The notes below the pieces were generated by a model that was not told the origin of the DNA, did not search any database, and was given only the letters and a program-made list of their open reading frames with translations. From the NCBI GenBank assembly GCA_963677485.1, contig OY781964.1:4096001-4160000 (forward strand): a stretch of DNA of 64,000 bases. The letters are read 5' to 3'. The stretch's first letter is position 1. Every line of letters begins with the position of its first letter. Shown piece after piece: positions 25,531-46,050 of this stretch. The stretch is from Armatimonadota bacterium. GTDB taxonomy: Bacteria; Armatimonadota; HRBIN16. Both the position numbers and the translations under genes were made by a program.

Positions 25531-25765
25531 TCTGAACCACGGATTACACGGATTTACAGGATGACACGGATGGAGAGGGAACGCCTCACGCGAGGACGCG
25601 AAGGTCGCGAAGGTTTGGAGAGTGAAGCTTTGCTTAGGGATCGATCCGTCCGATTCTACTAATCCGTCGGACCGTACGTCTGAACCACGGATGACACGGA
25701 TTAATTGGATGATACGGATAAGAGACGGAACGCTTCATCCGAAGACTCTGAGGACACGAAAAGTC
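25531..25765 (+). repeat. Two tandem copies of the TCTGAACCACGGAT 9-mer array plus CGCGAAGG array, left of tnpA
   Basis: TCTGAACCACGGATTACACGGATTTACAGGATGACACGGAT at 25531 and a near copy at 25679. Confidence 0.8.
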
Positions 25766-25776
25766 AGGGCGGCAAA

Positions 25777-26427
25777 CGCCCCGGAGGGGCAAGATTCTTT
25801 ACAGCCACGGGTAAGCGAAGCGCAACCCGTGGAGGGTAATCAGAAACCATCTACCCACGAACGTGGGTCGAATGGTTCGATGGAGGTGTATATGTCTGGG
25901 TCACTGGTATCCAACCACGTTCATATAGTATTTAGCACCAGAAAACGAGCTGAATTGATCCGATCTGACCATATGCAGGCCATCATCGCCCAAATGGTCG
26001 ATGTAATAGAAAAATACCATTGTCCGGTTCGGGCGATCGGTGGAACTAGTAACCACATGCACATACTTATATCGCTCAACCAAGAGTGCCGATTGTCATA
26101 TGTGGTGAGGGATGTTAAGGTGGCAACCTCCCATTGGATGCATGAGCAAGGTCTGAATTTCGAATGGCAGGCAGGTTATGGTGCCTTTTCAGTGGGACAA
26201 CGTGAGTTGGGTTTGGTGACGAACTACATAAGAGCACAGGATATACACCATGCGCGGTTTACATTTGATGAGGAATTCATTAAGATGCTGCGGCATGCTC
26301 AGATTGATTTCAACCCGGAGTATGTATTTGGGTGACAGACCCCTTCGGGGTAGAGGGCTTGTTGCTGCTTACCAGGGGTATCGCTTCGCTCACCCCTGGC
26401 TGTAAGGAATCCTGCCCCTTCGGGGCG
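25777..26427 (+). mobile_element. IS200/RAYT-like element: Y1 transposase between 56-bp hairpin-rich inverted repeats
   Basis: 25777-25832 and the reverse complement of 26372-26427 match at 48/56 by eye; each contains two hairpins. Confidence 0.75.
25892..26335 (+). CDS. tnpA: IS200/IS605-family (RAYT-like) HUH Y1 transposase
   Basis: HIVFST, NHMH (HUH), WQAGYGAFSV and YIRAQ (catalytic Tyr); RBS GGAGG. Confidence 0.9.
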   Translation: MSGSLVSNHVHIVFSTRKRAELIRSDHMQAIIAQMVDVIEKYHCPVRAIGGTSNHMHILISLNQECRLSYVVRDVKVATSHWMHEQGLNFEWQAGYGAFSVGQRELGLVTNYIRAQDIHHARFTFDEEFIKMLRHAQIDFNPEYVFG

Positions 26428-26519
26428 CCGGAGGATGCAGACGACATTGGTAATCGTAGATGTCAGACGATACAAGGTGTCGGAGATTGCTGACATTGGC
26501 AAACGCAGTATATGCTTCT

Positions 26520-26672
26520 CCCTCTCTCTCCTTCGCGGCCTTCGCGTCTTCGCGTGAGACATTCCCCTCCATCCGGGCCATCCGTGTAATCCGTGGTTCA
26601 GATAAAAAGCCAGCGGTTGAGACAATCCCGTTCCTCTTCTCCTCATCTCCTCCACTCCTGACTTCTCCCTCC
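26520..26672 (-). repeat. Inverted copy of the TCTGAACC/CGCGAAGG arrays plus pyrimidine-rich tract, right of tnpA
   Basis: Reverse complement reads TCTGAACCACGGATTACACGGATGGCCCGGATGGAGGGGAATGTCTCACGCGAAGACGCGAAGG, matching 25531-25613. Confidence 0.8.
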
Positions 26673-26701
26673 ATAGCCATATTTCCCAATCCAGAAAGAA
26701 A

Positions 26702-26744
26702 AGTAGGGATATACTTGACTTTGTAGTAGGGATTGTGACAGACT
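26702..26744 (+). promoter_or_regulatory. suf operon promoter with putative Rrf2 (IscR-like) operator
   Basis: ATACTTGACTTTGTAGTAGGGATT resembles the IscR type-1 box; AGTAGGGAT occurs twice; -35 TTGACT. Confidence 0.5.
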
Positions 26745-26762
26745 AATAGTGGAGAACGAATT

Positions 26763-27290
26763 ATGAAGATTACCGCACAAGAAGAATATGGACTTCGATG
26801 CCTGATGAACCTCGCTAGAAGGGTGCCGGGTCAGACCGTGAATGCCCGCGAAATATCCGAAGGCGAAGGACTGTCGGTGGCATACGTGGAAAAAATCCTG
26901 CATCAGCTCACACGAAGCGGCCTCACCGAAAGCGTGCGAGGTGCTTCCGGTGGATACCGCCTGAAACGCATGAATGATGCCATCACATTGCGCCAGGCGC
27001 TAGATGCGCTGGGCGGCGTGATCAACACCATGGATGTATGCGACCAGTACACCGGCTCGCATGAGGTGTGTGTTCACCAGCATGCAGGGTGTGGTATCCG
27101 AAGCGTTTGGGGATTCATCGGCGACTATCTGTCGCTGGTATTCGACAGCATCACCCTGAGGGATTTAGTCGACGGCAATTTCCCGATGCAGATGGAGCCG
27201 CTCCGGTATGCCAGGGAATCGCTGAGTCCAGCAAATACCGAAAACACTGATCAATTCGTAGCTGCGCCACAGGAGGCAGAACTTAAATGA
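26763..27290 (+). CDS. Rrf2-family Fe-S regulator (IscR/SufR-like)
   Basis: EEYGLRC, SVRGASGGY and three C-terminal Cys; heads the suf operon. Confidence 0.9.
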   Translation: MKITAQEEYGLRCLMNLARRVPGQTVNAREISEGEGLSVAYVEKILHQLTRSGLTESVRGASGGYRLKRMNDAITLRQALDALGGVINTMDVCDQYTGSHEVCVHQHAGCGIRSVWGFIGDYLSLVFDSITLRDLVDGNFPMQMEPLRYARESLSPANTENTDQFVAAPQEAELK

Positions 27291-31026: not shown

Positions 31027-31029
31027 CCA

Positions 31030-33067: not shown

Positions 33068-33144
33068 CGGGGTGTAGCTCAGCTTGGTAGAGCGCTTGCT
33101 TTGGGAGCAAGATGTCGCAGGTTCGAATCCTGTCACCCCGACCA
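33068..33144 (+). tRNA. tRNA-Pro (TGG)
   Basis: CGGGGTGTAGCTCAGCTTGGTAGAGCGCTTGCTTTGGGAGCAAGATGTCGCAGGTTCGAATCCTGTCACCCCGACCA. Confidence 0.96.
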
Positions 33145-33204
33145 CCACTTGTCCCAACTCCACAGTTTTTCTTCACAGATCATCCGCTTGTATGCATCAC
33201 CCGG

Positions 33205-33290
33205 AGAGGGAAATTCTCACGCGAAGACGCGAAGGCGCGAAGAGGGAGAGGGATTCTGTCACGCGGAGCCGAAGAGTGCGCGGAGGGATA
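33205..33290 (+). repeat. CGCGAAG(A/G) tandem repeat array at the left edge of the island
   Basis: CTCACGCGAAGACGCGAAGGCGCGAAG, the same array and orientation as left of tnpA. Confidence 0.7.
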
Positions 33291-33316
33291 GCCTGGACCT
33301 CTAAAGTCACATCCTG

Positions 33317-33952
33317 CTATTTAAAATCTATAGCTATACACTTCCAAGAATCATCTGCCTTATCCTCTTCCAACAAGCATGTAAAACTTTTCCGAAGAGT
33401 GGCCCCGAAGGCATTTTGCGAATCAAAATATCCAAAAACGCTATACTGATTTTCCGTCAACTGCTCGATTTTCACACCTTCGGCACCGGAGTTCGGAAAT
33501 ACTGCAGAAGTCGGCGACACTAGTTTTTTCTTCACAAACTCACATGCACATACCCATACTTCCGATGAGTTGAATTGTTGCTGACTAGATGCCGTAGTGG
33601 AACTTGAATCTTTTGGCTTATCTGAGTTGGTCATGCCTAGTATGAACACAATAATAACCCACACTAGAACGCTCAATGCCATTATATTGGTTTTCGTGGT
33701 AAATCGTCTGGACTGTCTGGCGGATTAACCAGGTATAGGACGTTGGTTTGCTTGTTTACCAGGAGAAACTGACGATTGTGTTCTTTGCGGTTGGCTACTG
33801 GCTTGTGCTGCTTGCTGACGCCGCTTCACCTCGTTGATGTCTGGTGCGCCAGGCCGCTGATATGGCTTGCAATAAGGGCAGTATACATCGGATTCCCGTA
33901 ATGAACGGCGGCAATTTACGCAATACACAGGATACGGGATTTTTGACGCCAT
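33317..33952 (-). pseudogene. Zinc-ribbon membrane protein interrupted by an in-frame TAA (paralog of 34050-34883)
   Basis: ORFs 33725-33952 and 33317-33682 are in the same frame, joined by TAA plus SARQSRRFTTKTNI. Both halves match the neighbouring gene. Confidence 0.8.
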
Positions 33953-34049
33953 TGTGACACCACCTCACATTCGACATGCCATAATAACAGTATTATACCT
34001 GTGTATTTACATTGAACGATCAGCATGATGATCGATCGGATATTAGATT

Positions 34050-34883
34050 CTATTCATCAAACTCAAAAGCGATTATTGTCCAATTATCACTGCTGATATT
34101 TTCTTTAAGGATACAGGTGAACCATGTTCTTAACATGGCACCGAATGAATTTTGCGAATCTACATACCCACGCACTGTATAGGAATCGGGTGAAATTTCG
34201 TTAACTACTACACCAGGTTCAGATGAATATGGAAATTGGGCAGAATGTGGTGATTTTAACTTGGCCCTGACATATTCGCACGTCATTACCCAGGCACCCG
34301 ATATATTGGCTACATGCTGAGGTGGCGCTGGTGGTGTCGGTGGAGTTTCACTCAACAACCATGGTGTGGGCTGTGGCTGTGTATTCACATTCGGCCTCGA
34401 ATTGATACCGCTAGGAGATCCAGCAGTATGAGTTTTATTAATCGATGAAGGTGTGTCAGATAAATATGAAGGACTAAACAATGCGATTAACACAATCACT
34501 CCTAGAACGCCCATTACTACATTCGAACAAGATATGCCAGACCGCACTGGTGGTATTTGCGCAGGCGCCTGCGGTACCTGTAGTCGTGCCTGTGGCGGCG
34601 GGGGTGTGATGATAGGCTCTTGTATAGGTTTCGCTTGTTGCGCTTGCTTGGCTGCTATTGCTTCTTGTTGCGTTTTCCAAGATACTGCTTGTTCATTTGG
34701 TGGTTGCGCTTGTTTAGCTCCTTGTGCTGCCTGCTGCGCTGTTTGCTGACGCCGCTTCACCTCGTTGATGTCTGGTGCGCCAGGCCGCTGATCTTGCTTG
34801 CAATAAGGGCAGTATACGTCGGATTCCCGCAATGAACGGCGGCAATTAACGCAATACACAGGATACGGATTTTGTGATTCCAT
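34050..34883 (-). CDS. Zinc-ribbon, Gln/Pro linker, TM and extracytoplasmic domain protein
   Basis: CVNC..CPYC N-terminus, one TM, C-terminal LKSPHSAQFP...VDSQNSFGAMLR domain; RBS GAGGTGG. Confidence 0.75.
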   Translation of the reverse strand: MESQNPYPVYCVNCRRSLRESDVYCPYCKQDQRPGAPDINEVKRRQQTAQQAAQGAKQAQPPNEQAVSWKTQQEAIAAKQAQQAKPIQEPIITPPPPQARLQVPQAPAQIPPVRSGISCSNVVMGVLGVIVLIALFSPSYLSDTPSSINKTHTAGSPSGINSRPNVNTQPQPTPWLLSETPPTPPAPPQHVANISGAWVMTCEYVRAKLKSPHSAQFPYSSEPGVVVNEISPDSYTVRGYVDSQNSFGAMLRTWFTCILKENISSDNWTIIAFEFDE

Positions 34884-35086
34884 AGTGATACCACCTCACT
34901 TTACAGATAGTATGCCCACGTTTGCTACAAAACGATAATACTACAAAGGTCACTTGCCCTTCTTTGTGGTTCGACCATTGGCCGGGCACGAGGACACCCG
35001 AACACTACGGTTGTTTACAAAACAACGCCGGAAATACACGGCAAAACAATATCGCCTCGGTCCTCTAGTTAGCTGCGATGAACCGG

Positions 35087-35887
35087 CTATTCATCTTGCA
35101 GTGAAACAACAGGCCCAATGGCCTGTGTTACTTCAGTATCATCTATCTTCGCTTTGTATGTCCATGCGGTTCCAGGACCTAACTAATCTATGCCTGCCGA
35201 GGTACGGCCCAACAAGCTGCCTGAGCTGTCATATAAGTCATACGTGATTTTAATATACGAAAAAGTTTTCTTTGAAGTGTTTTTGATTGTTCCAGCAATA
35301 AAACGGCTACTTCCTATGGTCTTTATATAACCCGGAGTAGCTATAAACCATATTGCAGGCTTTTTACGCTCAGTTGTTCGAGATCCTACACGCTCGAATG
35401 TTTCATCAGGCTGACCTTTTTTAATCCATTCCCACGGAGCTACTTGCTTACCGTGGTAGCCCCATAGTCCAGCCTTTACTGCCTGCGCTTTTTCTTGAAC
35501 TAGCTTATATTTCTCGCTGTTCGCCCAAGCATGGCCTTTTTCAACCATGATGGCGTTTATATCTTGGTCACCTAACTTTACATAACCTATGATAGAGTTC
35601 CAGCGGTCGCGACCTACTTCGTCCACAGTAATTTGCTTACCGTAGACCATAACACTCAGTGCTCTTGTTGAGATATTCTCGCAGAGTTGCCCAACTTCCG
35701 GTGCATCGATGCCGTATAGCGATACGTGCTCGGTCTTTCCATTTTGGCACTTTACCGTGATCGTGTTACCATCGGCTACCGCCGAAACTGTAGCTGTGAT
35801 TGGTGCCGATATACCGGGTAATGCCATCACAAATAGAACGGGTACGATTAGCCACATTGCGGAAACCGAGGCGTATATTCGGGACAT
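35087..35887 (-). pseudogene. Secreted thermonuclease (SNase) with FxLYD-like domain interrupted by an in-frame TAG at 35183-35185
   Basis: VADGNTI, LYGIDAPE, DRWNSII and MVEKGHAW are SNase-like motifs. YDLYDSSG...GID*LGPGTAWTYKA continues in frame to a stop at 35087. Confidence 0.7.
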
Positions 35888-36200
35888 GAGCGATTCTCCT
35901 TTTCAAGGCGCACTCAAGAATTGTTTTTATGATCAATCATGACTTATTCCTGTCTGTTAGCCCAGAATGTGTTCGTGTAATGACATTAGTATACCCACAT
36001 TTCTGCAGAAACGATCAGCATATTTCGTTATTTTGTATATAACCGTATGATCTGTTAATTGACCCACAGTATCCGATGTTATTTCTAAGCCGATACAGCT
36101 ACGGATCAGCTATTCTTGAGCGTTTTAGCATGCCACTGAATATGGAGGCGTAAGTTGCGTATCTTTGCTCACATTGTGCAGGCGCCACACTATGCCTGTG

Positions 36201-37208
36201 CTACTTGCGTTTTGCTATGGCCTTCTGAAGCCTTGTGATGCTTCGTTGGATTGTTTCAATCTGTGGTTGTGTTGGCACAACTCCAGTACGTCCTTCAGCC
36301 ATAGCGATCAATAGATCCAAAGCCTTCTGCTTCTCACCCATCTTTTCGTAACACATACGAAGACGGTCAAGATGCTTATATGCCGATAGGTGATCAGTCA
36401 GTTCATACATAAAATACTGCGCACACTTGACGTAGTTCTCGATCTTCCAAAAGCTCATACCATCCTCACGACGTTTCGCAAGGCTGTTGTTGATAGCAAT
36501 ATCTAGTTTGCGCCACGTGTCATGATAATTGTTATATACAAGCCGCTCTGAAAGCTCTTTTAGTGGACCAATAGGTGTCCCACTGTATATTTCATCCTGC
36601 AGCCATAACACAAGCAGATTGGAATAGTCGAGGCAATTCATTGATCCTGGAAGAGGAGGCAGGTTTTGCATTCCAGTTCGATTCGATGGCTTACCGAAGT
36701 AGTAACCAATTTCAACACTCAAAGATAAATCAGGTTGTGTGAACACATCTCTACCTGTCAGCCCACGTAGTTTCATCTGATTAGATACAAGAATCAAATG
36801 TGTGCCAAGTCCAGGGAACTTGCCATAGTTGAGGTGGAACATTGCGTCAGAAGCGCTGTAACCTTCAGGCTTATGCGGAATGATCTGAACGGTGGCTTGC
36901 GGGGGTATAGGCACGTTGTGCGATCCGACATTCGTCTCTTTGGTAGCAAGGTAGTAGATAACCACACCAAATGCAAGCAACCATAGTAGATATGTATAAA
37001 CTGTGCCTGCAATAATAACCAGCCCGATCGCACCACCTATAAGCACTTTGCGTATGGTGGGATCATCAAGCGGATTAATCTGCACTGGCTTTGCTGTCTG
37101 GCGAACTTCACCGCTGGCACTCCGTCCGCATCTGATGCAGTATTGTGATGATGCCGGCTGAAGGCTGCCACAGTGTAGGCAGGTGCGCATAGGATTAGGT
37201 GTGGGCAT
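36201..37208 (-). CDS. Zinc-ribbon membrane protein with helical C-terminal domain
   Basis: CLHC..CIRC N-terminus, hydrophobic hairpin and helical TPR-like C-terminus. Confidence 0.65.
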   Translation of the reverse strand: MPTPNPMRTCLHCGSLQPASSQYCIRCGRSASGEVRQTAKPVQINPLDDPTIRKVLIGGAIGLVIIAGTVYTYLLWLLAFGVVIYYLATKETNVGSHNVPIPPQATVQIIPHKPEGYSASDAMFHLNYGKFPGLGTHLILVSNQMKLRGLTGRDVFTQPDLSLSVEIGYYFGKPSNRTGMQNLPPLPGSMNCLDYSNLLVLWLQDEIYSGTPIGPLKELSERLVYNNYHDTWRKLDIAINNSLAKRREDGMSFWKIENYVKCAQYFMYELTDHLSAYKHLDRLRMCYEKMGEKQKALDLLIAMAEGRTGVVPTQPQIETIQRSITRLQKAIAKRK

Positions 37209-37420
37209 ATCGGAATCCTCGAGCCACAGAGATTAGTTACAGCGTTACGTTCACTGTAAGTATTCCGATATCCTTCTTTTTGCTTTGGTTTTCTGCAGCC
37301 GAAGGTTAGTTACACATCTTGCTCGATTAACATCGTTGCACATTCCGATGTATTACGCATAACGGCGTTATTAGTCTGTAGAAGAACCCATTCTCTTCAC
37401 CATACCCAGCAAATCGGCGG

Positions 37421-37587
37421 TCATCCAATATGCTCGCCGTAGAATATACCCGGTCTGCCTACCGCCTCGATAACCGCCCGTAACCAGATGACGATACCTG
37501 CCATGCCACCAATAGCAACACTAGTACCAATCCGAGCTTAAACTTCCAGCTACCATACCTTTAGGTGTAAATCCAACGATAGTGACC
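37421..37587 (-). pseudogene. Truncated remnant of a TM2-like gene (paralog of 39767-40279)
   Basis: Translates GHYRWIYT*RYGSWKFKLGLVL, then after a frameshift SVAIGGMAGIVIWLRAVIEAVGRPGIFY; the paralog reads GHFTWIYTYRYDSWKFWLGLVLSV...WAVIETVGRPDSFY. Confidence 0.8.
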
Positions 37588-37656
37588 GCATCTCTCCATC
37601 CGAACCTGTCCGTGCCATCCGTGTAATCCGTGGTTCAGACAAAAAGCAGCTCAGAC
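37588..37656. repeat. 69-bp direct repeat, left of TA cassette
   Basis: 64/69 identical by eye to 38315-38383; contains GTAATCCGTGGTTCAGAC. Confidence 0.9.
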
Positions 37657-37668
37657 TATCTGCCAAAC

Positions 37669-37977
37669 TCAACTATGAGAGTCGCGGAAATCTTCTACCA
37701 AACGCGACAACCCGTCCATTCGCTGGTAGATATCTTTACGATGGCCTGCTCTGACGATCAGTACATACAACTCCTGCTGAATGACGGCATATACAATCCT
37801 GTAGTCACCTTGGCGGATACGGTAACAGTCATCCTGCCCTGCGATCTTGCGGCATCCAGCAGGCCGAGGGTCTTCCGCTAGACGGTCAATTTGCTCTGCG
37901 AGCTTGGCTTGTATCTCTTTTGGTAGCTTGGCAAAAGAATCCATGGCTTTGGCTGTAAACTCAATGCGGTAACTCAA
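37669..37977 (-). CDS. RelE/ParE-family toxin
   Basis: YRIEFT..A, PRPAGCRKI, YRIRQGDYRIVY, GHRKDIY. Confidence 0.92.
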   Translation of the reverse strand: MSYRIEFTAKAMDSFAKLPKEIQAKLAEQIDRLAEDPRPAGCRKIAGQDDCYRIRQGDYRIVYAVIQQELYVLIVRAGHRKDIYQRMDGLSRLVEDFRDSHS

Positions 37978-38240
37978 AGCCCTAGTTCCGATTTAACCTG
38001 CTCCCAGGGTAGTGTCTTACCTTCACGGATTTCGTTCAGCGTCGCCCGTATATCGTCAGAATCAATATCATCTTCAAGCCGATCGATGATCTTTTCCAGC
38101 AACATGAGATCTTCAAGAGGGATGATGGCTACCATCTTCTTTCCGTTGCGCGTGACCACCACCCGATCTTTCGAAAACGCCGTATGGCTCACTAGCTCGC
38201 TGAATGCGTTTCTCGCTTGTTCCGCCGTGATTGTCGTCAT
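37974..38240 (-). CDS. Phd/YefM-family antitoxin
   Basis: ITAEQARNAFSELV...VVVTRNGKKMVAII; overlaps the toxin start by 4 bp. Confidence 0.9.
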   Translation of the reverse strand: MTTITAEQARNAFSELVSHTAFSKDRVVVTRNGKKMVAIIPLEDLMLLEKIIDRLEDDIDSDDIRATLNEIREGKTLPWEQVKSELGL

Positions 38241-38263
38241 TTTGAAAACCTCCAAAACTTGCA

Positions 38264-38283
38264 GACTGTACAGTTATTGTACC
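38264..38283. promoter_or_regulatory. Putative TA operator
   Basis: Palindrome ACTGTACAGT plus a second TGTAC, as in YefM-type operators. Confidence 0.55.
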
Positions 38284-38314
38284 TGAGTTTAGATACCAAC
38301 CTTGCATCCAAACA

Positions 38315-38383
38315 GCACCTCTCCATCCGAACCCATCCGTGTCATGCGTGTAATCCGTGGTTCAGACAAAAAGCAGCTCAGAC
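38315..38383. repeat. 69-bp direct repeat, right of TA cassette
   Basis: Matches 37588-37656. Confidence 0.9.
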
Positions 38384-38541
38384 AACACGATGGCTGCTCT
38401 GACGGCCAAAAATACAAATCCTGATGCATGACTCCCATAGCGCAAGCTGCCGATGTATACTGAAACCGGTAAGTGCAGTGATCAGCAAAAGACAGGGTTA
38501 CCCGGTTCTGCATGGGTGATCTGGACAAAATAGGAGCTATC

Positions 38542-39186
38542 ATGGCGATAATTGGTATAAGCGGCAGCCCCACCCCCAACAGTAATGTAGATAGAATGGT
38601 CCAGATGCTGCTACACGAAAGCGGCAAGGAAACCAAGTTTGTAAAACTGAGCAAACTCAATTTCTTTCCCTGTCGGGGATGTGCCCATCTCTGTGCAGCT
38701 ACTGCCATGTGTGGTCAGAAAGATGATTTGCATCCCTTTCTCGCTGACATCAGAGATGCGGAAGCTTTGGTCATCGGAAGTCCCAGGCATCATGGCACGA
38801 TGACGGCCTCGACATATAGCTTTTTCTCACGTCTTTGGTGTTTTCTCCACGATAACTGTGTTATTTACCATAAACCTGTCGTTTTTGTCTCATCTGGTCT
38901 TTGTGATAAAGAACATGCTCGAGGGACCTTTGGTGCTTCATTGGTTCAAGAACATGAGTTCAATGTGTTGGGTGAAGTGTATTACCAGAGCTTTAATCCC
39001 CCATGTATTAAGTGTGGCAAAGGGAATACATGTATGAACCACGGAGGGCTTTGGAATCTGCTGGGTAGAAATGAAGAGGCACTTCGGAATTACGACCTAT
39101 CAGCTCATCACTTTACCCAGTTTGAAGAGGACCAGGAGACCATCGATGAGATTATAAGGTATGGAAAAATACTTTCAACCCTCTAA
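38542..39186 (+). CDS. Flavodoxin-like iron-sulfur flavoprotein
   Basis: GISGSP..SN, CRGCAHLC...C..KDD, GSP; extra CIKC..C. Confidence 0.85.
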   Translation: MAIIGISGSPTPNSNVDRMVQMLLHESGKETKFVKLSKLNFFPCRGCAHLCAATAMCGQKDDLHPFLADIRDAEALVIGSPRHHGTMTASTYSFFSRLWCFLHDNCVIYHKPVVFVSSGLCDKEHARGTFGASLVQEHEFNVLGEVYYQSFNPPCIKCGKGNTCMNHGGLWNLLGRNEEALRNYDLSAHHFTQFEEDQETIDEIIRYGKILSTL

Positions 39187-39230
39187 ATGCATCAAGAAAA
39201 GAAACTTATAGATGACGGGAGAGAGCAAAT

Positions 39231-39629
39231 ATGACTGCGCACAATGAAAACACTGATCCGCGCGGGGGCAAAAAGACCGTAATGTCTGTTCGACCCTGGG
39301 GAGATATCCATATGGTCGTGCGGAACCAGAAATGTTCCGTTGATCTGACTCACGTTAAGCCAGGGGAGAGGGCCAGTCTCCACTCCCACGCTGTGCGTAC
39401 TGAACTTTTTCACTTTATGGACGATGGGGCCTATTTGGAAATTGATGGTGAGATCACCAGGCCAAAAGCCCACGAAGAAGTACTCATCCTGCCGGGTATG
39501 CAGCACCGTTTCTGGGCGGAAAATATAGATTTTCGCATGTTGGTGGTCTGTTTCGGAGAGTGGACGGTAGAAGATCAGGTCCGTCATGAAGATGACTACG
39601 GCCGTGAAGGCACTAGGCTAGAGATCTAA
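39231..39629 (+). CDS. Cupin protein (mannose-6-phosphate isomerase type II C-terminal-like)
   Basis: RPWG, VKPGERASLHSH..RTE, HRF, EDQVRHEDDYGR. Confidence 0.8.
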   Translation: MTAHNENTDPRGGKKTVMSVRPWGDIHMVVRNQKCSVDLTHVKPGERASLHSHAVRTELFHFMDDGAYLEIDGEITRPKAHEEVLILPGMQHRFWAENIDFRMLVVCFGEWTVEDQVRHEDDYGREGTRLEI

Positions 39630-39704
39630 CCATAAAGATTTCGTGGGAGTGAACCAAGCAGAAGCAACCAAAACCTTACCCTCGCCATCCGCAAACCCCC
39701 GTAC

Positions 39705-39738
39705 CCTCTGTGTCCTCTGTGTCCTCTGTGGTTCAGAC
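39705..39738. repeat. (CCTCTGTGT)n array ending in GGTTCAGAC
   Basis: Three 9-bp units with the same anchor as the other arrays but a different unit. Confidence 0.8.
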
Positions 39739-39766
39739 TTCTCTTCGGTCTGCATCACGGAGTAAG

Positions 39767-40279
39767 TTATACGGGATATTGTTCATAGAATGAATCCGGT
39801 CTGCCGACTGTCTCAATAACGGCCCATAGCCAGAAGACGATACTCGCTACGCTACAAGTCACCACACTTAGTACCAGTCCCAGCCAAAACTTCCAGCTAT
39901 CATATCTGTAGGTGTAAATCCAAGTGAAGTGACCAAATATGATTGCCAGGATCAACGCGGTGGATTTGTTTTTCACAGGGGCATTGGTCAGCCGATAAGG
40001 GGCCATCGGCAGCGGTTCCTGGAATCCCGGATATTGCGATTGCCTGGCCGCGATTGCTTCCTGTTGTGCTTTCCATGATATTGCCTGGCCACCTGGTTGT
40101 TGCGGTTGGCTAGCTGCCTGCGCTGCCTGCGCTGCGGCTTGTTGACGCATCTTCTCCACGTTGATGTCTGGCGCGCCCGGCGGCTGGTCTTGCTGGCAAT
40201 AGGGGCAGCACACGTCGGTTTCCCTTATTGCACGGCGGCAGTTCACGCAATACACAGGATAGGGGTTATTCGACGCCAT
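39767..40279 (-). CDS. Zinc-ribbon protein with TM2-like membrane domain
   Basis: Same YPVYCVNCRR..CPYC..PGAPDIN N-terminus as the 33952 and 34883 genes; KNKSTALILAIIFG is TM2-like. Confidence 0.75.
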   Translation of the reverse strand: MASNNPYPVYCVNCRRAIRETDVCCPYCQQDQPPGAPDINVEKMRQQAAAQAAQAASQPQQPGGQAISWKAQQEAIAARQSQYPGFQEPLPMAPYRLTNAPVKNKSTALILAIIFGHFTWIYTYRYDSWKFWLGLVLSVVTCSVASIVFWLWAVIETVGRPDSFYEQYPV

Positions 40280-40345
40280 GAAGCCACCTCGGATTTCTGA
40301 TCGGTAACGACATCAGTATACCCACGTTGACCACAAATAAGACGG

Positions 40346-40447
40346 ACCACGGATAAAACGGGTGACGCGGATTATGCGGATGGGGAGAGGGATTGGTCCA
40401 TCCGCGGTTCAGACGGGGAATGTCCTGTCTGAACCGCGGATTTACCG
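40346..40447. repeat. 9-mer array with back-to-back GGTTCAGAC/GTCTGAACC anchors
   Basis: TCCGCGGTTCAGAC (40401-40414) and GTCTGAACCGCGGA (40427-40440) form a perfect inverted repeat. Confidence 0.8.
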
Positions 40448-40462
40448 AAGGGCAGTATACCT

Positions 40463-42580
40463 TTAGTCGCCGATGGCGCCAAAATGGCGGTCAATCACCA
40501 CGTAATCGAACAGGTTGACCTGTCCATCGCCGTCAAGGTCCGCCACGGGATCGCTGCTGTTGAAGCGGCTGTCTAGCTGCACATAGTCGAACAGGTTTAC
40601 CTGGCCGTCGCCATCGGCATCGCCGTTGACCAGCGCGGCGTTCAGGCTTTGTTCTGCCGCCACATTGCTTAGCTTCGTCGTTAAGAAGTGCGGGCTGGCG
40701 ATGCGGATGTCATATGGCGGCTGCAGATAGCTGGAGAGGTTGAAACGACCGTCTGGTTGTGGGATCAAGCTGAGGCACTGACTGACACTTGGGTCTGCAG
40801 TGCTGCTGACGTATGCCGTGAGCTGCCGCGAGGCCATACTGCCTGTGAAATCGCCCAGTTGCACCTGCCCGGAGAGCTGCTTCACGCCGCGGATGACTGT
40901 GGTAGTGTTGCGATACACATCAATTGCGAGGATGCCGTTATTGGGAGCTGGCACGGAATACACCTTGTTGTCATTGCTTCCCCAGATCACCAACGACCCG
41001 TCGCGCTTCAAACCGACCGCATGTTCGTATCCGATATCCGCAGCGATGAAATCCTGGTTGGGTTCTGGCACCGTATGATACCCCCAGTTGTTATAACCCC
41101 AGCAAACGATAGACCCATCTCTCTTCAATCCGATGGTGTTTCCGTAACCTGCGGATACTGACATGAAATCAATGTTTGGTGCCGGCACTACACAAGCATT
41201 ACCAAAGGATGAGCCCCAACAGACCACTGAACCATCACGCTTAATCGCGGCTGAATGGTGAGCTCCCGCAGAGATCGCCATAAACTCCTGGTTCGGTGCG
41301 GGTACCGTGCCTTTACCCGCTTCGTTCGATCCCCAGCAGAGGACAGAACCATCACGCTTCAATCCCATCGTATGGTCATCACCCGCAGAGACCGCCATAA
41401 AGTCCTGGTTTGGAGCCGGAACACTACACTGGCCGTCAGTATTCAGACCCCAACAAGCGATCGAGCCATCCTGTCGGAGTGCCGCTGTATAGCCGATACC
41501 TACGGTTATTGAGGTGAAGCCGCTGTTGGGTTCAGGAACACTACATTGTCCAACGTCGTTCTGTCCCCAGCAAACCACCGATCCGTCAGCTTTCAATCCT
41601 GCGGAGTGGTCGGTGGTGTAGGCTACACTCGTGAAGTCTTGATTGGGTGCAGGTATGTTCAACTGGCCACTGTAGGCAGCTCCCCAAAACACCAGTGTTC
41701 CATCGCGTTTCACCCCGACGGTGTATGAATAGGCAGATGAGACCGATGCGAAATCTTGGTTGGGAGCCGGCACATTGCACTGCCCCGTGTCATTCAATCC
41801 CCAGCAAACCACTGAACCGTCGCGTCTCACGGCGGACGTATATGAATCTCCAGCATCTATAAACGCAAAGTCCTGGTTAGGCACAGGAATGTCACATTGG
41901 TTGCGGTCGTTAGTTCCCCAGCATACCAGCGTTCCATCGCGCTTCAGGCCTACAGAAAAGCCGTTGCCCGCTGAGACGGCGGTAAATTCTGAATTTGGCA
42001 TGGGTACATTACACTCGCCGTTTGCATTGGTACCCCAGCAGACTACCGAACCATCACGCTTCAATCCGATAGAGTGGGTATAAGCTGTATCGACCGCAAC
42101 AATATCTTTATTAGGTGACGGTGTTGCTGATGAATTTCCCCAGCAGACTACCGAGCCATCACGTTTCAGTCCGACTGTCTGCGTAAAGCCAATAGCGATG
42201 GCAGTGTAATCGATGTATGACGGAGGGTAGCTGCTTGGTATGCCAATGAATACTATTGTACCATCGCGTTTTATCCCATATGTTCCCGACCCCCCTGTGG
42301 ACACAGCCGTGAAACCGCGATTTGGTGAGGGCAATACACAGTTGTTGTTTAGATTAGAACCCCACAAGACGATGCTTCCATCCCGTTTCAGGCCTGCGCA
42401 GGAGCTTGATCCCGCTGCCACAGCAGAAAACCCGCTGAGTTCGCCCGGTACACTAACTTGATAACCCCAAGTCTCGATGGTCCCACCTAGTGCCAACGAT
42501 CGCGAACTGCAGTAAATCACCATGAGTAAAGAGATACACCATACCGGGATACCGATCAGTAATGCTTTCACGGACGTCAT
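40463..42580 (-). CDS. Secreted RCC1/BLIP-II repeat protein with dockerin-like C-terminus
   Basis: About 40-aa repeats SAGxxHxxGLKRDGSVVCWG; duplicated DxDGDGQVNLFDY tail. Confidence 0.85.
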   Translation of the reverse strand: MTSVKALLIGIPVWCISLLMVIYCSSRSLALGGTIETWGYQVSVPGELSGFSAVAAGSSSCAGLKRDGSIVLWGSNLNNNCVLPSPNRGFTAVSTGGSGTYGIKRDGTIVFIGIPSSYPPSYIDYTAIAIGFTQTVGLKRDGSVVCWGNSSATPSPNKDIVAVDTAYTHSIGLKRDGSVVCWGTNANGECNVPMPNSEFTAVSAGNGFSVGLKRDGTLVCWGTNDRNQCDIPVPNQDFAFIDAGDSYTSAVRRDGSVVCWGLNDTGQCNVPAPNQDFASVSSAYSYTVGVKRDGTLVFWGAAYSGQLNIPAPNQDFTSVAYTTDHSAGLKADGSVVCWGQNDVGQCSVPEPNSGFTSITVGIGYTAALRQDGSIACWGLNTDGQCSVPAPNQDFMAVSAGDDHTMGLKRDGSVLCWGSNEAGKGTVPAPNQEFMAISAGAHHSAAIKRDGSVVCWGSSFGNACVVPAPNIDFMSVSAGYGNTIGLKRDGSIVCWGYNNWGYHTVPEPNQDFIAADIGYEHAVGLKRDGSLVIWGSNDNKVYSVPAPNNGILAIDVYRNTTTVIRGVKQLSGQVQLGDFTGSMASRQLTAYVSSTADPSVSQCLSLIPQPDGRFNLSSYLQPPYDIRIASPHFLTTKLSNVAAEQSLNAALVNGDADGDGQVNLFDYVQLDSRFNSSDPVADLDGDGQVNLFDYVVIDRHFGAIGD

Positions 42581-42657: not shown

Positions 42658-44769
42658 TCAGTCGCCGATGGCGCCAAAATGGCGGTCAATTACCACGTAA
42701 TCGAACAGGTTGACCTGCCCATCGCCGTCAAGGTCAGCCATGGGGTCATTGCTGTTGAAGCGGCTGTCTAGCTGCACATAGTCGAACAGGTTCACCTGAC
42801 CGTCGCCATCGGCATCGCCGTTGACAAGCGCTGCGTTCAGGCTTAGTTCTGCGGCCATATTGCTTAGCCTCGCTGTCAGGAAGTGCGGACTAGCGATGCG
42901 GATGTCATATGGCGGCTGCAGATAGCTGGAGAGGTTGAAACGGCCATCTGGTTGTGGGATCAAGCTTAGGCACTGGCTAACACTCGGGTCCGATGTGTTG
43001 CTGACATATGCCGTGAGCTGCCGCGAGGCCATACTGCCTGCAAAGTCGGTCAGTTGCACCTGCCCAGAAAGCGACTTGAGGCCACGGATGATGGCTGATG
43101 AACCACCGTTGGCTCTGATCGCCAGGATCCCGCTATTTGGGTTCGGTATGACAGAAGGGCCACTGTCATATGACCCCCAGAAGACTGCAGTTCCGTCACG
43201 CTTCAAACCTATTGCATGACCTCGACCCATGGCGATGGCCGTAAAGTCCTGGTTGGGTTCTGGTATTCTGGAAAGATAGGTGTCATTGGGCCAGATGACG
43301 ATCGAACCATCCCGCTTCAATCCTAAAGTGAATCTTTCTCCTGCAGAAACAGCCATGAAGTCACTATTGGGCTCAGGCACCGTTCGTATGGCTGAGGTAC
43401 CACCCCAGCACACGACAGAGCCATCACCCTTCAGTCCGGCAGCGTGATTAACACCTGCAGATATCGCCACAAAACCCTGATTCGGGATAGGCAAGCTGGT
43501 GTCGCTGCTTGATGTATCTCCCCAGTCCACCACTGAACCGTCACTTTTCAAACCTACCGTGTGAGCACCGGAAGTAGATACAGCAACGAAGTCTTGGTTA
43601 GGTGCTGGTACAATTAAGCCATTATTGTTTGGGCTTCCCCAACACACTATCATTCCGTTACGTCTCAAAGCCACCATGTGTCCATTCCCTGCGGATACCG
43701 ATATAAAGTCATTGTTTGGCGCAGGCACGTTGCACTGACCAACATCATTCATTCCAAAGCAGGTGATCGAACCATCCTTTCGCAATACTGCGGTATTGTA
43801 AGCCGCCACAGATACATCGATGATCTCCTCATTCGGAACCGGCAGGCCACACTCTCCATCTTGAGACCCCCATGATACCACCGTGCCGTCGCGCTTCACT
43901 CCGCAGGAGTGAGCGTATCCTGCACTGATGGAAGCCCAATCACGATTAGGTTCCGGAACTACACACTGTTTGTCCGTATTATATCCCCAGCAGACGATTG
44001 ATCCATCGCTCTTCAGACCCATGATATGCCCGGCGCCGGCACTAATTGATACGAAGTCTGCATTTGGCACGGGCACATCACGCTGACCACAAGCATCACT
44101 ACCCCAGATCACCACTGATCCGTCACGTTTTAGTCCAACTGCGAACTCAGCGCCAGCACTAATCGCTACAAAGTCTTGGTTAGGTTGAGGCACGTTGCAC
44201 TGTCCTGCACTATTGTCACCCCAACAAACCACCGATCCATCATTCTTAAGTCCCACATTAAAGGTCATGCCCGCAGAAACAGCACTGAAGTTTTCGTTAG
44301 GCTCAGGTGTGATATAGTTTGTGGGATAGCTGTCTCCCCAACAAATGATTTTGCCTTCAACTGTCAGTCCTGCCATATGCGAAAATCCCGCTGCAATAGC
44401 AGTGAATTTCTGGTCCGGGTTCCTATAACCAAAGCTACCCCAGCAAACCACCGTGCCGTCAGTCTTCAATCCTGCAGAGAACCTGAATCCTGAAACCACG
44501 GAGGTAAAACCACTGTTAGGTAAGGGAATTTTACATTGTTCTTGTCCGCTATACCCCCAACCGACAAGGCTGCCGTCGCGCTTCAGGCCTATTGTGTCCA
44601 TATATCCTGCAGTAACGGAGCGGAAACCTGTCAGTTGGCCTGGTGCCAGAACCCGCATGCCCCAGGTTTCCACAGTTCCACCCTGGGCGAAGCAGGCCGC
44701 GGTGGACATCAGAAGGAAAACAGTTGTTACTGACTTGCGGCAAAGAGACAAAAGCTGCGGCAGATGCAT
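42658..44769 (-). CDS. Secreted RCC1/BLIP-II repeat protein with dockerin-like C-terminus (paralog)
   Basis: Same architecture as 40463-42580 with a near-identical C-terminus. Confidence 0.85.
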   Translation of the reverse strand: MHLPQLLSLCRKSVTTVFLLMSTAACFAQGGTVETWGMRVLAPGQLTGFRSVTAGYMDTIGLKRDGSLVGWGYSGQEQCKIPLPNSGFTSVVSGFRFSAGLKTDGTVVCWGSFGYRNPDQKFTAIAAGFSHMAGLTVEGKIICWGDSYPTNYITPEPNENFSAVSAGMTFNVGLKNDGSVVCWGDNSAGQCNVPQPNQDFVAISAGAEFAVGLKRDGSVVIWGSDACGQRDVPVPNADFVSISAGAGHIMGLKSDGSIVCWGYNTDKQCVVPEPNRDWASISAGYAHSCGVKRDGTVVSWGSQDGECGLPVPNEEIIDVSVAAYNTAVLRKDGSITCFGMNDVGQCNVPAPNNDFISVSAGNGHMVALRRNGMIVCWGSPNNNGLIVPAPNQDFVAVSTSGAHTVGLKSDGSVVDWGDTSSSDTSLPIPNQGFVAISAGVNHAAGLKGDGSVVCWGGTSAIRTVPEPNSDFMAVSAGERFTLGLKRDGSIVIWPNDTYLSRIPEPNQDFTAIAMGRGHAIGLKRDGTAVFWGSYDSGPSVIPNPNSGILAIRANGGSSAIIRGLKSLSGQVQLTDFAGSMASRQLTAYVSNTSDPSVSQCLSLIPQPDGRFNLSSYLQPPYDIRIASPHFLTARLSNMAAELSLNAALVNGDADGDGQVNLFDYVQLDSRFNSNDPMADLDGDGQVNLFDYVVIDRHFGAIGD

Positions 44770-45036
44770 TTGAGATACCCTCGTTTACTATGTTATGACC
44801 CGATATTACCTGCAGATACAGCGAGCACAAGCAAGGAAGTGTCACATCAACGAAACACCGTGTGACCGTATACAGTCAGTAGTTTACATCAAATAGGTAA
44901 GAAAGGGAAACCATCGGATGCGAATTATTGAGACGAGTGATACTGATCATCTTGACGCTGTTACTTCAACTTTGTGCCCGTGATGGTTCAGCCACTCCTT
45001 ATCGGCTAATATGGAACTGATCTCGGTCTTCGGAGG

Positions 45037-45981
45037 GTGAATACCATGCGTCCACTGCTTCGCGAATACTTGCTCCGCCTACTGCTGGTGCTGAGCACGG
45101 GTGTGATATTCGTCGTGTTCTCCGAGCTGATGTTTTGGGGACGCTACGACTTTGCGAAAAACATCCCTGCCGAATACTTGCACACTGTGCTGGCCTATTC
45201 GTTCATGGCCTGGGTGTTCCTTATTGTGGTGCGTCTGTTCCGTGTGCGCAGTCTGCATGCGCTGTTTATGGCCGGAGCGGTGTTCGGATGGCTGTGCGAA
45301 GGCATTTTTGTTCAGACGATGTATGATGACTTTCCAATAAAAATCTCCTTCACCGGTCTGGCCTGGCACGCGTTGTTGACGGTCTGCTGCGGTTGGTATC
45401 TGTTCCGCAGGTTGATGCTGATGGACAGCCCTCTGCCGACACTGAAGGTTTCCGTTTTGGCCGGGCTGATATGGGCATTGTGGTCAGTTTGGTGGTGGAT
45501 CACCAAAGGGTTGGTGTCTACACCGGACGAATATGCCGTTTACGCCATCATTACGACCGTGATGTTGATTGTGGGGCTCCGGGTGTCAGCGATGATACCC
45601 TCGGCGGTTTTCCGACCCTCGAAGGGTGATATCATAGTCACCATGCTTTTGGTGCTGCTGTTCTACCTATTAATAACCATCAGAGCGAACCATTTGGCAC
45701 TGACTGTTCTACCGGTCTGCATGGGATTAGCCTTTTACGCGCTGAACAAGAACAGGCAGGCTGAAACCGAACCTGATGTCCTTCAGCAGCTTGACGGTAG
45801 GGTTTACCCGTGGAACTATGCTGCCATTCTGGTGATGCCTGCCGTTTCGACGGCTGTATATGCGATTCTCTATTATGCGCACATACGGCTGCGGACAGGG
45901 CCTGTGTTCTACCTGGGTTTGACCACCGCGGGGTTCACCCTGTTCTTTTACAGCTTCATCCGGCTGGTGCGCAGAAGGTGA
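45037..45981 (+). CDS. Polytopic membrane protein of unknown function
   Basis: About 10 hydrophobic segments; RBS GGAGG before GTG. Confidence 0.65.
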   Translation: MNTMRPLLREYLLRLLLVLSTGVIFVVFSELMFWGRYDFAKNIPAEYLHTVLAYSFMAWVFLIVVRLFRVRSLHALFMAGAVFGWLCEGIFVQTMYDDFPIKISFTGLAWHALLTVCCGWYLFRRLMLMDSPLPTLKVSVLAGLIWALWSVWWWITKGLVSTPDEYAVYAIITTVMLIVGLRVSAMIPSAVFRPSKGDIIVTMLLVLLFYLLITIRANHLALTVLPVCMGLAFYALNKNRQAETEPDVLQQLDGRVYPWNYAAILVMPAVSTAVYAILYYAHIRLRTGPVFYLGLTTAGFTLFFYSFIRLVRRR

Positions 45982-46003
45982 GCTGGTGCACCATTCTGTG
46001 ATC

Positions 46004-46050
46004 GTCTGAACCGCGGATTACGCGCAATCCGCGTAATCCGTGGTTTAGAC
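46004..46050. repeat. Cargo-free inverted pair of the TCTGAACC array
   Basis: GTCTGAACCGCGGATTACGCGCAATCCGCGTAATCCGTGGTTTAGAC hairpin. Confidence 0.8.

Follow-up and report, generated by a model that had tools for sequence, protein, structure and literature searches.

In a 64,000-nt stretch of an Armatimonadota bacterium genome (contig OY781964.1, positions 4,096,001 to 4,160,000 of the forward strand; hereafter the window), short intergenic repeats that we call arms are dispersed among the genes, and inverted copies of them bracket the gene of an IS200-like HUH/Y1 transposase. Each arm is made of a nearly constant terminal foot followed by tandem 9-nt units. We consider it somewhat probable (about 0.55) that the arms are short non-coding mobile repeats of the repetitive extragenic palindrome (REP)/REPIN or 'terminal inverted repeat (TIR)-repeat' kind, that the Y1 locus is a REPtron- or TIRtron-like unit, and that the Y1 protein is the probable mobiliser of the arms in trans. 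We are highly confident that the arms form a dispersed and mobile family resembling REPINs or miniature inverted-repeat transposable elements (MITEs); the odds that the subclass-1.2 Y1 enzyme drives them appear roughly even, this part being inferred from one locus. Intergenic mobile repeats around a domesticated-looking transposase are in themselves an ordinary kind of thing.

Arms are built from a foot and tandem 9-nt units

An earlier sequence-only reading of the window had described a fixed anchor, always intergenic, which was followed by 9-bp-periodic arrays and concentrated at the junctions of accessory genes. The anchor TCTGAACC occurs 13 times in the 64 kb against 1.77 expected, and 0 of 100 shuffles reached 13. 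When it was extended to TCTGAACCRC, 10 copies were found against 0.33 expected, and a degenerate 19-nt pattern (TCTGAACCRCRGAKKACRC) that runs from the foot through the first 9-nt unit into the second gave 8 matches against 0.00 expected. The extended anchor starts on the plus strand at 25531, 25679, 40428 and 46005, and on the minus strand it occupies 4158-4167, 26593-26602, 37630-37639, 38357-38366, 39728-39737 and 40404-40413. These ten sites agree within a few bases with those first listed, and all ten (10/10) are intergenic on the open reading frame (ORF) map of the window. The partners that had been placed at '4136' and '46050' are one-mismatch variants (TCTGAACT at 4129-4136 and GGTTTAGA at 46042-46049). 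Since five variant anchors are present in the window (TCTAAACC, TCTGAACT, GTCTCAACC, GATTGAACC and GTCCGAACC), the anchor can be called fixed only roughly. Bare TCTGAACC matches at 7546, 27358 and 34216 were set aside as chance occurrences, as they lie within long ORFs and carry neither the RC extension nor 9-mers.

The periodic arrays were recovered by Tandem Repeats Finder, in agreement with the earlier description; arrays of period 9 adjoin six anchors:

25538-25571: 3.8 copies
25686-25719: 3.8 copies
37609-37632: 2.7 copies
38335-38359: 2.8 copies
39705-39730: 2.9 copies of the ACAGAGGAC variant, 100% matches
46021-46040: 2.2 copies

The same program reported CGCGAAGG arrays of period 8-9 at 25589-25614 and 26530-26554, and an orphan one at 33219-33243. 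The window copies of the arm start 5' with (T)TG TCTGAACC and continue with 2-4 units, for example ACGGATTAC or, in one case, ACAGAGGAC; GGATGGAGAGG and other purine-rich sequence often come next. Taking all copies together, an arm can be described as a terminal foot, (T)TG-TCTGAACC, joined to a tandem run of 2-5 units of 9 nt, whose C-GA(T) core is conserved (ACGGATTAC, GCAGATTAC, ACAGAGGAC and others), and a tail that is often purine-rich. An additional, degenerate foot lies 17-20 nt upstream in five of the arms (GTCTCAACCGC, GATTGAACCGC, GTCCGAACCGC and, twice, GTCTGAGCTGC). An nhmmer profile made from the copies of the window and of a relative (contig OW818647.1) identified 11 footed arms and one footless array in the window, every one of them intergenic. 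Apart from the arms of the Y1 locus, given below, the copies and an orphan tail are:

4075-4220: compact two-armed element within a longer purine-rich palindrome, between convergent URO-D-like and ispG genes (nhmmer E 1.1e-08)
33203-33290, plus strand: orphan arm tail, consisting of GGAGAGGGAAATTCTCA and a CGCGAAG array, with neither foot nor clear 9-mers, 60 nt 3' of tRNA-Pro and 93% identical to 26538-26566
37585-37656, minus strand: solo arm of the double-foot subfamily, just downstream of ParE, with a tail that abuts the gene remnant 37430-37587; no significant fold
38312-38383, minus strand: solo arm of the same double-foot subfamily, upstream of Phd/ParE, 92% identical to 37585-37656
39693-39738, minus strand: solo arm with ACAGAGGAC units, between the cupin gene and 39767-40279 (nhmmer E 3e-06)
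40346-40453: cluster formed by a footless 9-mer array (40346-40384, plus strand) and the arms 40398-40415 (minus strand) and 40426-40453 (plus strand)
46002-46052: minimal two-armed element, with 45 nt between the outer feet

The two arms of the cluster are joined foot to foot and give a 19-bp hairpin. When ten stretches were folded as single-stranded DNA (ssDNA), significant structures appeared only where two inverted arms are present (4075-4220, z -4.94; 40330-40460, z -5.85; 45990-46080, z -5.10), whereas six solo-arm stretches and the orphan tail (33190-33300) folded no better than their shuffles did (z -0.07 to +2.06). As to the proposed concentration at accessory junctions, it holds for the five arms in or beside a low-GC block at 37.5-40.5 kb and fails for the rest, which flank ispG (4233-5522), the Rrf2/suf operon (26763 onward) and a FIST gene with synteny kept in the relative.

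The Y1 gene lies within two nested inverted repeats

Aligning the left flank of the Y1 gene to the reverse complement of its right flank revealed two nested layers of inverted repeats. In the outer one, 25531-25613 matches 26602-26530 (arm plus CGCGAAGG array, about 90% identical) and the similarity stops exactly at the foot on both sides. The inner one (approximately 25768-25874 against 26434-26335) contains three small hairpins. The locus is organised as follows:

25528-25613, plus strand: outer left arm, with foot (ACG)TCTGAACC, about four 9-nt units, GGAGAGGGAAC and then the CGCGAAGG array
25676-25740, plus strand: second, more decayed left arm, 148 nt downstream of the first (89% over 44 nt; nhmmer E 1.1e-10)
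25768-25874, plus strand: inner left module with three small hairpins (CCCCGGAGGGG; CCACGGGT..ACCCGTGG; ACCCACGAACGTGGGT)
25892-26335, plus strand: HUH/Y1 transposase gene, IS200-like, 147 aa (protein P0002), Pfam Y1_Tnp 1.8e-20, signature YIRAQDIHH
26335-26434, minus strand: inner right module, inverted copy of 25768-25874 (89% over 46 nt)
26530-26604, minus strand: outer right arm, with its foot at 26595-26602 and an upstream pseudo-foot, GTCTCAACCGC, at about 26612-26622

This 1.07-kb unit (25531-26602) has the topology of the cargo-free doublets, with the feet outward and the Y1 gene inside. As in a REPtron, a dispersed extragenic repeat in inverted copies flanks the Y1 gene and, as in a TIRtron, the gene lies between long terminal inverted repeats that belong to a dispersed family; the precedent for both layouts can be found in the corresponding parts of Quentin 2018 (PMC6006769) and Di Nocera 2013 (PMC3733652). 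The sequence-only reading was right in proposing recombination- or mobile-type repeats with 'empty' (two arms) and 'filled' (two arms around a gene) forms, and in naming a RAYT-type enzyme (a REP-associated tyrosine transposase) as the thing to look for: a Y1 transposase is bracketed by the arms. It had also supposed that the system lacks a local integrase; among the 54 window ORFs scanned, the only recombinase-like gene is this one and so a local enzyme is present.

Repeat-made ORF artefacts surround the gene. The listed ORF 25622-26335 has an over-extended start, its Pfam Y1_Tnp match beginning at residue 98 and its upstream part being a read-through of the second arm, and a 118-aa ORF (26299-26655) runs across the right flank. 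Arms thus create spurious ORFs and over-extended gene starts (25622; 26299-26655). The 147-aa form that starts at the ATG at 25892 is present in the protein database at 100% identity, and none of 120 listed Y1 homologues was found to carry an arm-derived N-terminal extension.

In an alignment of 38 homologues, H55-x-H57, Y112 and Q116 were invariant, and the protein has these catalytic residues intact. The family profile matched the structures of the TnpA proteins of IS608 (2a6m, 2.3e-15) and ISDra2 (2xm3, 1.6e-13), and no TnpA-REP structure was found among its 8 matches; this profile search was used in place of a single-sequence search of the PDB, whose match was spurious. NCBIfam scores fell below the cut-offs (transpos_IS200, 52.2 bits against 55; REP_Tyr_transpos, 25.5 against 80), and in the protein atlas only generic Y1_Tnp clusters were found. 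The motifs EWQ (EWQAGYGAF) and YIRAQDIHH fit the Y---Q--HH signature of TnpAY1 subclass 1.2, and the motif Y[IVL]..Q..HH was present in 119 of 120 homologues among the matches listed. In the entry that Quentin 2018 (PMC6006769) gives to subclass 1.2, its members have Y---Q--HH, a WQ motif, about 148 aa, low copy number and divergent intragenomic copies, and are annotated 'REP: no'. By motif, length, WQ and low copy number, P0002 fits this subclass. A second Y1 copy, P0004, apparently from the same genome as the window, is 54% identical to P0002. The best match in the relative, P0003 (apparently from OW818647.1), is 60% identical to P0002 and 82% identical to P0004, and P0003 and P0004 are probably orthologues. 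The 90% cluster of P0002 consists of one sequence. Low copy number and divergent paralogues point to a RAYT-like, not an IS-like, behaviour.

The inner three-hairpin module is a repeat in its own right. A copy without a Y1 gene adjoins an arm in OW818647.1 (locus L082, 153-259), and the module is weakly similar (nhmmer E 0.033) to the flank of a Y1 gene on a megaplasmid of Persicobacter, a member of the Bacteroidota (locus L114, 1387-1477). There, the upstream module occurs at 9 places of the 632-kb replicon and the Y1 gene at 1. A tblastn search of the plasmid collection showed that subclass-1.2 Y1 genes on two Bacteroidota megaplasmids also lie between inverted hairpin modules. The search of these two loci for TCTGAACC arms found none, and blastn of the plasmid collection with the arm returned marginal matches only (E about 0.9). 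The flanking modules of P0002 and of the two Bacteroidota copies contradict the published status of subclass 1.2, to which neither REPs nor terminal structures are assigned. In addition, at one locus, a member of a protein class for which no associated repeats were reported is now seen with bracketing arms.

Doublets of arms behave as mobile elements in other genomes

A scan of genome contigs with the 19-nt pattern, which imposes the foot, returned at least 113 loci with 125 arms, and 2-kb flanks were obtained for 80 of the loci listed. About 140 chance matches are expected in the whole 596-Gb collection, so the number of loci is uninformative on its own and the information lies in the sequences around the matches. 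Among the matches listed, a second unit with the GA core was present in 110 of 125 arms and a third in 93 of 125, the commonest run being 4 units. The GAT of the second unit, which the pattern does not impose, was conserved at 94, 91 and 75%, and that of the third at 71, 65 and 60%. The bases that stood out 5' of the foot were G (70%), T (58%) and T (52%) alone, and conservation was at background from 4 nt 5' of it, indicating that the arm has a sharp outer end. The listed arms share the C-GAT core, with variable positions between, and the flavour of the unit differs from genome to genome (GATTAC, GAGGAC, GATGAC). About 15 listed loci that lack a second unit may be chance matches.

Arms were found in at least 73 assemblies with about 20 phylum-level labels. 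Titles among the matches listed include Dehalococcoidia, SAR202, Anaerolineae, Planctomycetota, Acidobacteriota, Peregrinibacteria/Peribacteria, Patescibacteria, Poribacteria and Gemmatimonadota, and also Bacteroidota, Calditrichota, Desulfobacterota, Burkholderiales, Thiomargarita, Verrucomicrobiota, Armatimonadota and Marinamargulisbacteria. Because the search pattern imposes the foot, its constancy across phyla is only partly informative.

Many of these arms are paired. An inverted partner (at least 15/20 matches) was present within 400 nt of 40 of the 125 arms listed, against 1 of 125 with a shuffled probe, and 22 doublets were complete, with both feet; their sizes range from 45 to 324 nt and are mostly 103-123 nt. 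Direct repeats of at least 3 nt in the flanks were found in 0/22 doublets at offsets 0, 2 and 3 and in 1/22 at offset 1, and the tips read TG...CA in 12/22. Folded as ssDNA, all 39 paired arms (39/39) had z below -3, with a median of -8.0, each doublet being counted from both strands; for solo arms the figures were 6/68 and a median of -0.65. In a Peribacteria metagenome-assembled genome (MAG), four doublets of 107-108 nt are 81-93% identical to each other while their 57-nt flanks have identities of 0.39-0.55, with the exception of the right flank of one same-contig pair (0.75). Doublets within a Patescibacteria MAG (72-75%), on a Calditrichota contig (87%) and in OW818647.1 (71-81%) are also alike, and overall, apart from that single 0.75 flank, the doublet flanks within genomes are at 0.39-0.58 identity. 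Discrete doublets that are 81-93% identical in unrelated flanks mean that the repeat itself moves. The doublets have the signature of a mobile element with defined ends that produces no target duplication.

Two further arrangements were seen among the loci. In one uncultured-bacterium MAG (loci L042 and L077), head-to-tail arms recur about every 82 nt and form a satellite-like array of foot, units and G-rich tail. The doublet at 2001-2113 of locus L002, in OW818647.1, is a heterodimer whose left arm has ACAGAGGAC units and whose right arm has ACGGATTAC-type units, so that a single genome can contain several unit subfamilies with a common foot.

The surroundings of the arms are heterogeneous. 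Of 68 arms, 33 lie between tandem genes, 12 between convergent and 10 between divergent ones, 12 are 'genic' on a crude ORF map and 1 is at an edge. No recurrent neighbour protein family was found in the 1,394 ORFs of the 113 listed loci (the largest cross-genome clusters span 3 loci, barring read-through ORFs of the repeats), and the 48 of these loci that were scanned for tRNA genes contained 0. Searches against Rfam gave only 3 tRNAs in the whole window at gathering thresholds, and only sub-threshold miRNA-like or snoRNA-like hairpins when 20 loci and 25300-26800 were searched permissively. No described RNA family matches the arms. A literature search with arm substrings retrieved only primers in unrelated papers, and two longer strings had no occurrence in the papers listed; searches on TIRYT, TnpAY1 and TIRtron returned nothing on topic after 2018, and those combining MITE or IS200 with the phylum names returned nothing. 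No paper of the library searched matches the arms. They are apparently undescribed and unusually widespread, with the limit that the TIR sequences of Di Nocera 2013 were not compared and a published TIR resembling them may exist.

Other known motifs that recall parts of the arm were considered and dropped. In principle, a DnaA-like helix-turn-helix (HTH) domain fused to Y1, as in subclass 2.1, could read the 9-nt units. The units match the DnaA box (TTATCCACA) at about 5/9 positions, and the Y1 protein has no such domain. The foot shares GTCTGAA with the Neisseria uptake sequence (GCCGTCTGAA), a likeness that we judged to be coincidental given the arrays, the phyla and the intergenic restriction. 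The 'CnGA' repeats of class 3 and the CGTC-tagged REPs, as presented in parts of PMC6006769 and PMC3733652, respectively, differ from the arms in sequence and structure.

One site is occupied in two related genomes

The closest genome sampled, OW818647.1, contains at least 20 arm-bearing loci, one of which (L076) aligns to 44018-47089 of the window at 72-87%. In both genomes a doublet occupies the intergenic site upstream of the FIST gene; it measures 45 nt in the window (46005-46049) and 166 nt in the relative (L076, 2001-2166). The two ends coincide in position, the 121 nt by which the copies differ belong to the interior, and both flanking genes are conserved. The sharing of the site implies that the element predates the split, that its termini have been maintained and that no gene was gained or lost there. 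Hence, at the one comparable site, the prediction that genes come and go exactly at the anchors did not hold.

Here the intergenic DNA around the doublet is less conserved than its termini, and the sequence just outside the feet is poorly conserved. This could be expected if the arms were functional elements kept by the host and maintained by selection, for instance iteron arrays for a nucleoid or regulatory protein, or mRNA 3'-end stabilisers or terminators. The same foot across about 20 phylum-level labels would agree with such a role, as would a conserved core with variable spacers, typical of binding sites, and the position of several window copies just 3' of genes. Host elements of this kind would not, however, explain near-identical doublets in unrelated flanks within genomes. 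Besides, none of the arms in the 33-47 kb region overlaps a hairpin-plus-T-run terminator or a sigma-70-like site, the 68 arms of other genomes show no bias to gene 3' ends, and neither the gathering nor the permissive Rfam search gave a match. We therefore regard this explanation as improbable on its own; a domesticated function of the arms would be compatible with their being mobile repeats.

The sequence-only reading had interpreted the anchors as attC-like recombination sites that capture gene cassettes, as in an integron, with the integrase encoded elsewhere. What recommends this model is the region 37.6-40.4 kb, where, as in cassette arrays, four consecutive same-orientation arms separate small sets of accessory genes, including a toxin-antitoxin (TA) pair, over about 3 kb of a low-GC block beside tRNA-Pro, and where one gene remnant starts exactly at the tail of an arm. 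attC sites are defined as imperfect palindromes with R''/L''-L'/R' architecture and the core GTTRRRY. The complement of the anchor, GGTTCAGA, does not fit GTTRRRY, having C at the first R position, and 6 of the 9 anchored stretches are unstructured (z -0.07 to +2.06), unlike attC palindromes. No IntI was found in the 64 kb; in Pfam searches of 54 window ORFs, Y1_Tnp was the only match of an integrase or recombinase kind. Both strands are represented among the genes that lie between arms, and two genes share one interval; arms elsewhere flank core genes, and the only 'filled' unit carries the transposase, not cargo. The two arms around Phd/ParE are no more alike (92%) than they are to a third arm of the subfamily, 26569-26610 (about 90%). 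No gene or cassette difference exists at the orthologous site, the neighbours of the 113 listed arm-bearing loci share no cassette-like content, and in other genomes the repeat itself is the dispersed unit. We consider an integron-like system very unlikely, and this central part of the early proposal is not supported.

Which enzyme moves the arms

Two features of the Y1 locus favour the Y1 protein as the mobiliser: the outer inverted repeat coincides exactly with the feet, and the left side has two arms, as in REPtron clusters. Moreover, the lack of target duplication in the doublets fits HUH single-strand transposition. The catalytic residues of P0002 are intact, REPtrons and TIRtrons provide a precedent, and the subclass-1.2 genes of the two Bacteroidota megaplasmids, which are set between inverted hairpin modules as well, point in the same direction. 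We infer that the Y1 enzyme or a paralogue mobilises the arms and cleaves at the foot. An immobile, low-copy Y1 gene would thus be bracketed by repeats that it probably mobilises in trans. The doublet would fold on ssDNA, for example on the lagging-strand template; a Y1 dimer would bind the folded doublet and cut at or beside the conserved foot; and the doublet would then be moved or copied without target-site duplication. Solo arms and compact palindromes may arise later, through internal deletion and slippage of the 9-nt units. The genes between arms (the TA pair, the FMN reductase and cupin genes and others) would be the neighbours of independent insertions, not cassettes.

Several observations weigh against a role for the Y1 protein. 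Its link with the arms comes from one locus, and no Y1 gene (0) was detected in the 113 listed loci by tblastn and profile search, 80 of the loci being covered with 2-kb flanks. The module shared in architecture with the Bacteroidota Y1 genes is the inner one, not the arms, so that the Y1 unit could have landed inside a pre-existing doublet, and in the relative the inner module occurs beside an arm without any Y1 gene (L082). The arm-rich OW818647.1 has no close orthologue of P0002, the best match being 60%. Single arms are not palindromes, unlike the classical REPs that RAYTs recognise as hairpins, and the two arms of L002, which carry different units (ACAGAGGAC and ACGGATTAC), cannot pair beyond the foot. 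Judged from sequence, a C-GAT core with variable spacers looks more like a set of iterated protein-binding sites than like a pairing stem. Finally, the table entry for subclass 1.2 in Quentin 2018 (PMC6006769) reads 'REP: no'.

Some of these points could be accommodated if the arms were the ends of miniature transposons of another transposase, for which a DDE enzyme is the obvious candidate. The arms would then be TIRs with iterated subterminal binding sites, and either the Y1 unit landed in a doublet or arms landed on either side of it. Such transposons would have a parent element that shares their ends and encodes the transposase; within the 64 kb and the flanks of the 113 listed loci, none came to light. 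Such ends could account for the TG...CA tips of 12 of the 22 doublets and for 2-5 iterated units per end with a conserved core and variable spacers. They would need neither folding single arms nor a heterodimer able to pair, and the resemblance of the inner module, not the arm, to the Bacteroidota Y1 flanks would be no difficulty, nor would the abundance of arms in a relative without a close P0002 orthologue. Insertion sequences are also known to target REP-like hairpins. On the other hand, unlike DDE-type MITEs, the 22 doublets have inverted repeats without target-site duplication, and nearly all DDE transposons make one. The 1,394 ORFs of the 113 listed loci include no recurrent neighbour family that could be the transposase, and Y1 is the only transposase in the window ORFs scanned. 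A chance insertion would not predict an outer inverted repeat that ends exactly at the feet, nor two arms on the left side as in REPtron clusters. We consider this origin unlikely.

Returning to the Y1-driven repeats, a more specific proposal can be made tentatively. The arms may be undescribed, very widespread REPIN-like ssDNA elements, with a near-invariant foot (TTGTCTGAACC), lineage-specific iterons and an 'orphan' subclass-1.2 Y1 mobiliser that would bind the C-GAT cores and cleave at the foot. We regard this as possible and short of likely; if it holds, the logic of recognition differs from the hairpin-plus-GTAG of classical RAYTs. More generally, if the Y1 link is true, the arms provide a substrate for subclass-1.2 Y1 proteins, a widespread branch of the IS200 superfamily without an assigned function, and long-lived repeat populations of the REPIN/RAYT type extend to Armatimonadota, Chloroflexota, bacteria of the candidate phyla radiation (CPR) and other little-studied phyla. 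A cross-phylum foot beside lineage-specific iterons would also be a simple handle for in vitro work on the choice of DNA by HUH enzymes.

Comparison with known repeat-transposase systems

A REPtron is reportedly (Nunvar 2010; Bertels & Rainey 2011) a RAYT (TnpA-REP) gene flanked by REPs or REPINs. The window shares with it a low-copy HUH/Y1 gene set between inverted copies of a repeat with further copies dispersed through intergenic DNA, inverted doublets that form long hairpins, the lack of target duplication and a site occupied in both related species. As REPINs do, the inverted doublets behave as a replicating unit (81-93% identical in unrelated flanks). Differences are also clear. The foot is (TTG)TCTGAACC, without a GT[AG]G, and the single arm consists of tandem 9-nt units instead of a 20-40-nt palindrome. 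REP families are usually lineage-specific, whereas the same foot is found here in many phyla. The Y1 protein belongs to class 1, subclass 1.2 (Y---Q--HH), and not to class 2, for which the RAYT section of Quentin 2018 (PMC6006769) gives the signature Y---NP. Lacking the class 2 motif, the GTAG foot and the palindromic unit, the system is not a classical RAYT/REP, though its layout is REPtron/TIRtron-like.

TIRtrons, in the description available from Di Nocera 2013 (PMC3733652), are Y1 genes with long terminal inverted repeats and dispersed TIR families. Here too, long inverted repeats (about 85 nt in the outer layer and about 100 nt in the inner one), not REP hairpins, flank the Y1 gene, and the repeats occur elsewhere as singles, dimers and clusters. 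TIRYTs, as far as the relevant part of Quentin 2018 (PMC6006769) goes, are mostly of subclass 2.1, about 238 aa long and provided with a C-terminal HTH or DnaA-like domain; the present protein has 147 aa and only the Y1 core (Pfam Y1_Tnp). The TIR motif GGGGWSAS is not enriched in the window (16 copies against 15.9 expected), the arms lack it and the inner right module has one copy (26389-26396); the TIR descriptions of Di Nocera 2013 (PMC3733652) include some without this motif. By analogy, the arms and the Y1 gene would work like a REPtron or a TIRtron.

With IS200/IS605 elements the locus has in common the best structural relatives of its protein (IS608 and ISDra2 TnpA), the HUH and Y---Q motifs and the absence of target duplication. 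Unlike them, its gene is not multi-copy, has no tnpB and is flanked by inverted repeats, not by two same-strand subterminal hairpins, and its NCBIfam transpos_IS200 score is below the cut-off. A last comparison concerns class 3 TnpAY1, for which Quentin 2018 (PMC6006769), in the part on this class, reports atypical hairpins with a CnGA foot and about 600 copies in Solibacter usitatus. The arms likewise are an atypical REP-like family without GTAG in little-studied phyla (Planctomycetes and Acidobacteria for class 3), and their foot contains CTGA, which fits CnGA. The repeat sequences of class 3 (CCGAGCCGCGACCGT... type) are unrelated to the arms, though, and class 3 proteins have Y----Q with W[TA], while here YIRAQDIHH is found with WQ.

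The low-GC block and other features of the window

Directly 3' of tRNA-Pro (33068-33144), the GC content falls to 0.42-0.52 over 33145-40000, compared with 0.52-0.59 around it. The block contains three paralogous zinc-ribbon proteins (33725, 34050 and 39767), an SNase homologue, Phd/ParE, and an FMN reductase with a cupin. Neither an integrase nor a duplicate of the 3' end of tRNA-Pro (att site) was found in it. The block is probably foreign DNA. The arms within it are solo and belong to a subfamily that also has members elsewhere. The gene remnant 37587-37430 corresponds to the C-terminal part (aa 116-131 and 138-168, with a frameshift) of a paralogue of the protein encoded at 39767-40279, and begins exactly at the tail of arm 37585-37656, so that at least one rearrangement breakpoint coincides with an arm. 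Dispersed repeats often mark rearrangements in this way, and arms are likely sites of assembly breaks and rearrangements in MAGs.

Other repeats are present in the window. An unrelated second family is represented at 14160-14381 by two 94-nt arms, 100% complementary, with a 34-nt loop; further copies, 74-90% similar, lie at 47224-47403 and 51916-52110, and a perfect palindrome with 32-nt arms is found nearby (14471-14557). A dispersed repeat of about 190 nt (23741-23937), located between 22148-23731 and 24123-25496, matches 8 loci of OW818647.1 at 77-93%, and in that contig the arms, this type of repeat and other motifs occur together as mosaics. Among the genes, 40463-42580 and 42658-44769 are tandem paralogues of about 705 aa that combine nine RCC1 repeats with a dockerin domain at the C-terminus; their 3' 300 nt are 92% identical. 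The product of ispG (4233-5522) is 95% identical to a protein of an Armatimonadota MAG, and a DUF1559/N-methyl pilin-like gene, compatible with this phylum or with a PVC lineage, is located at 47645-48451.

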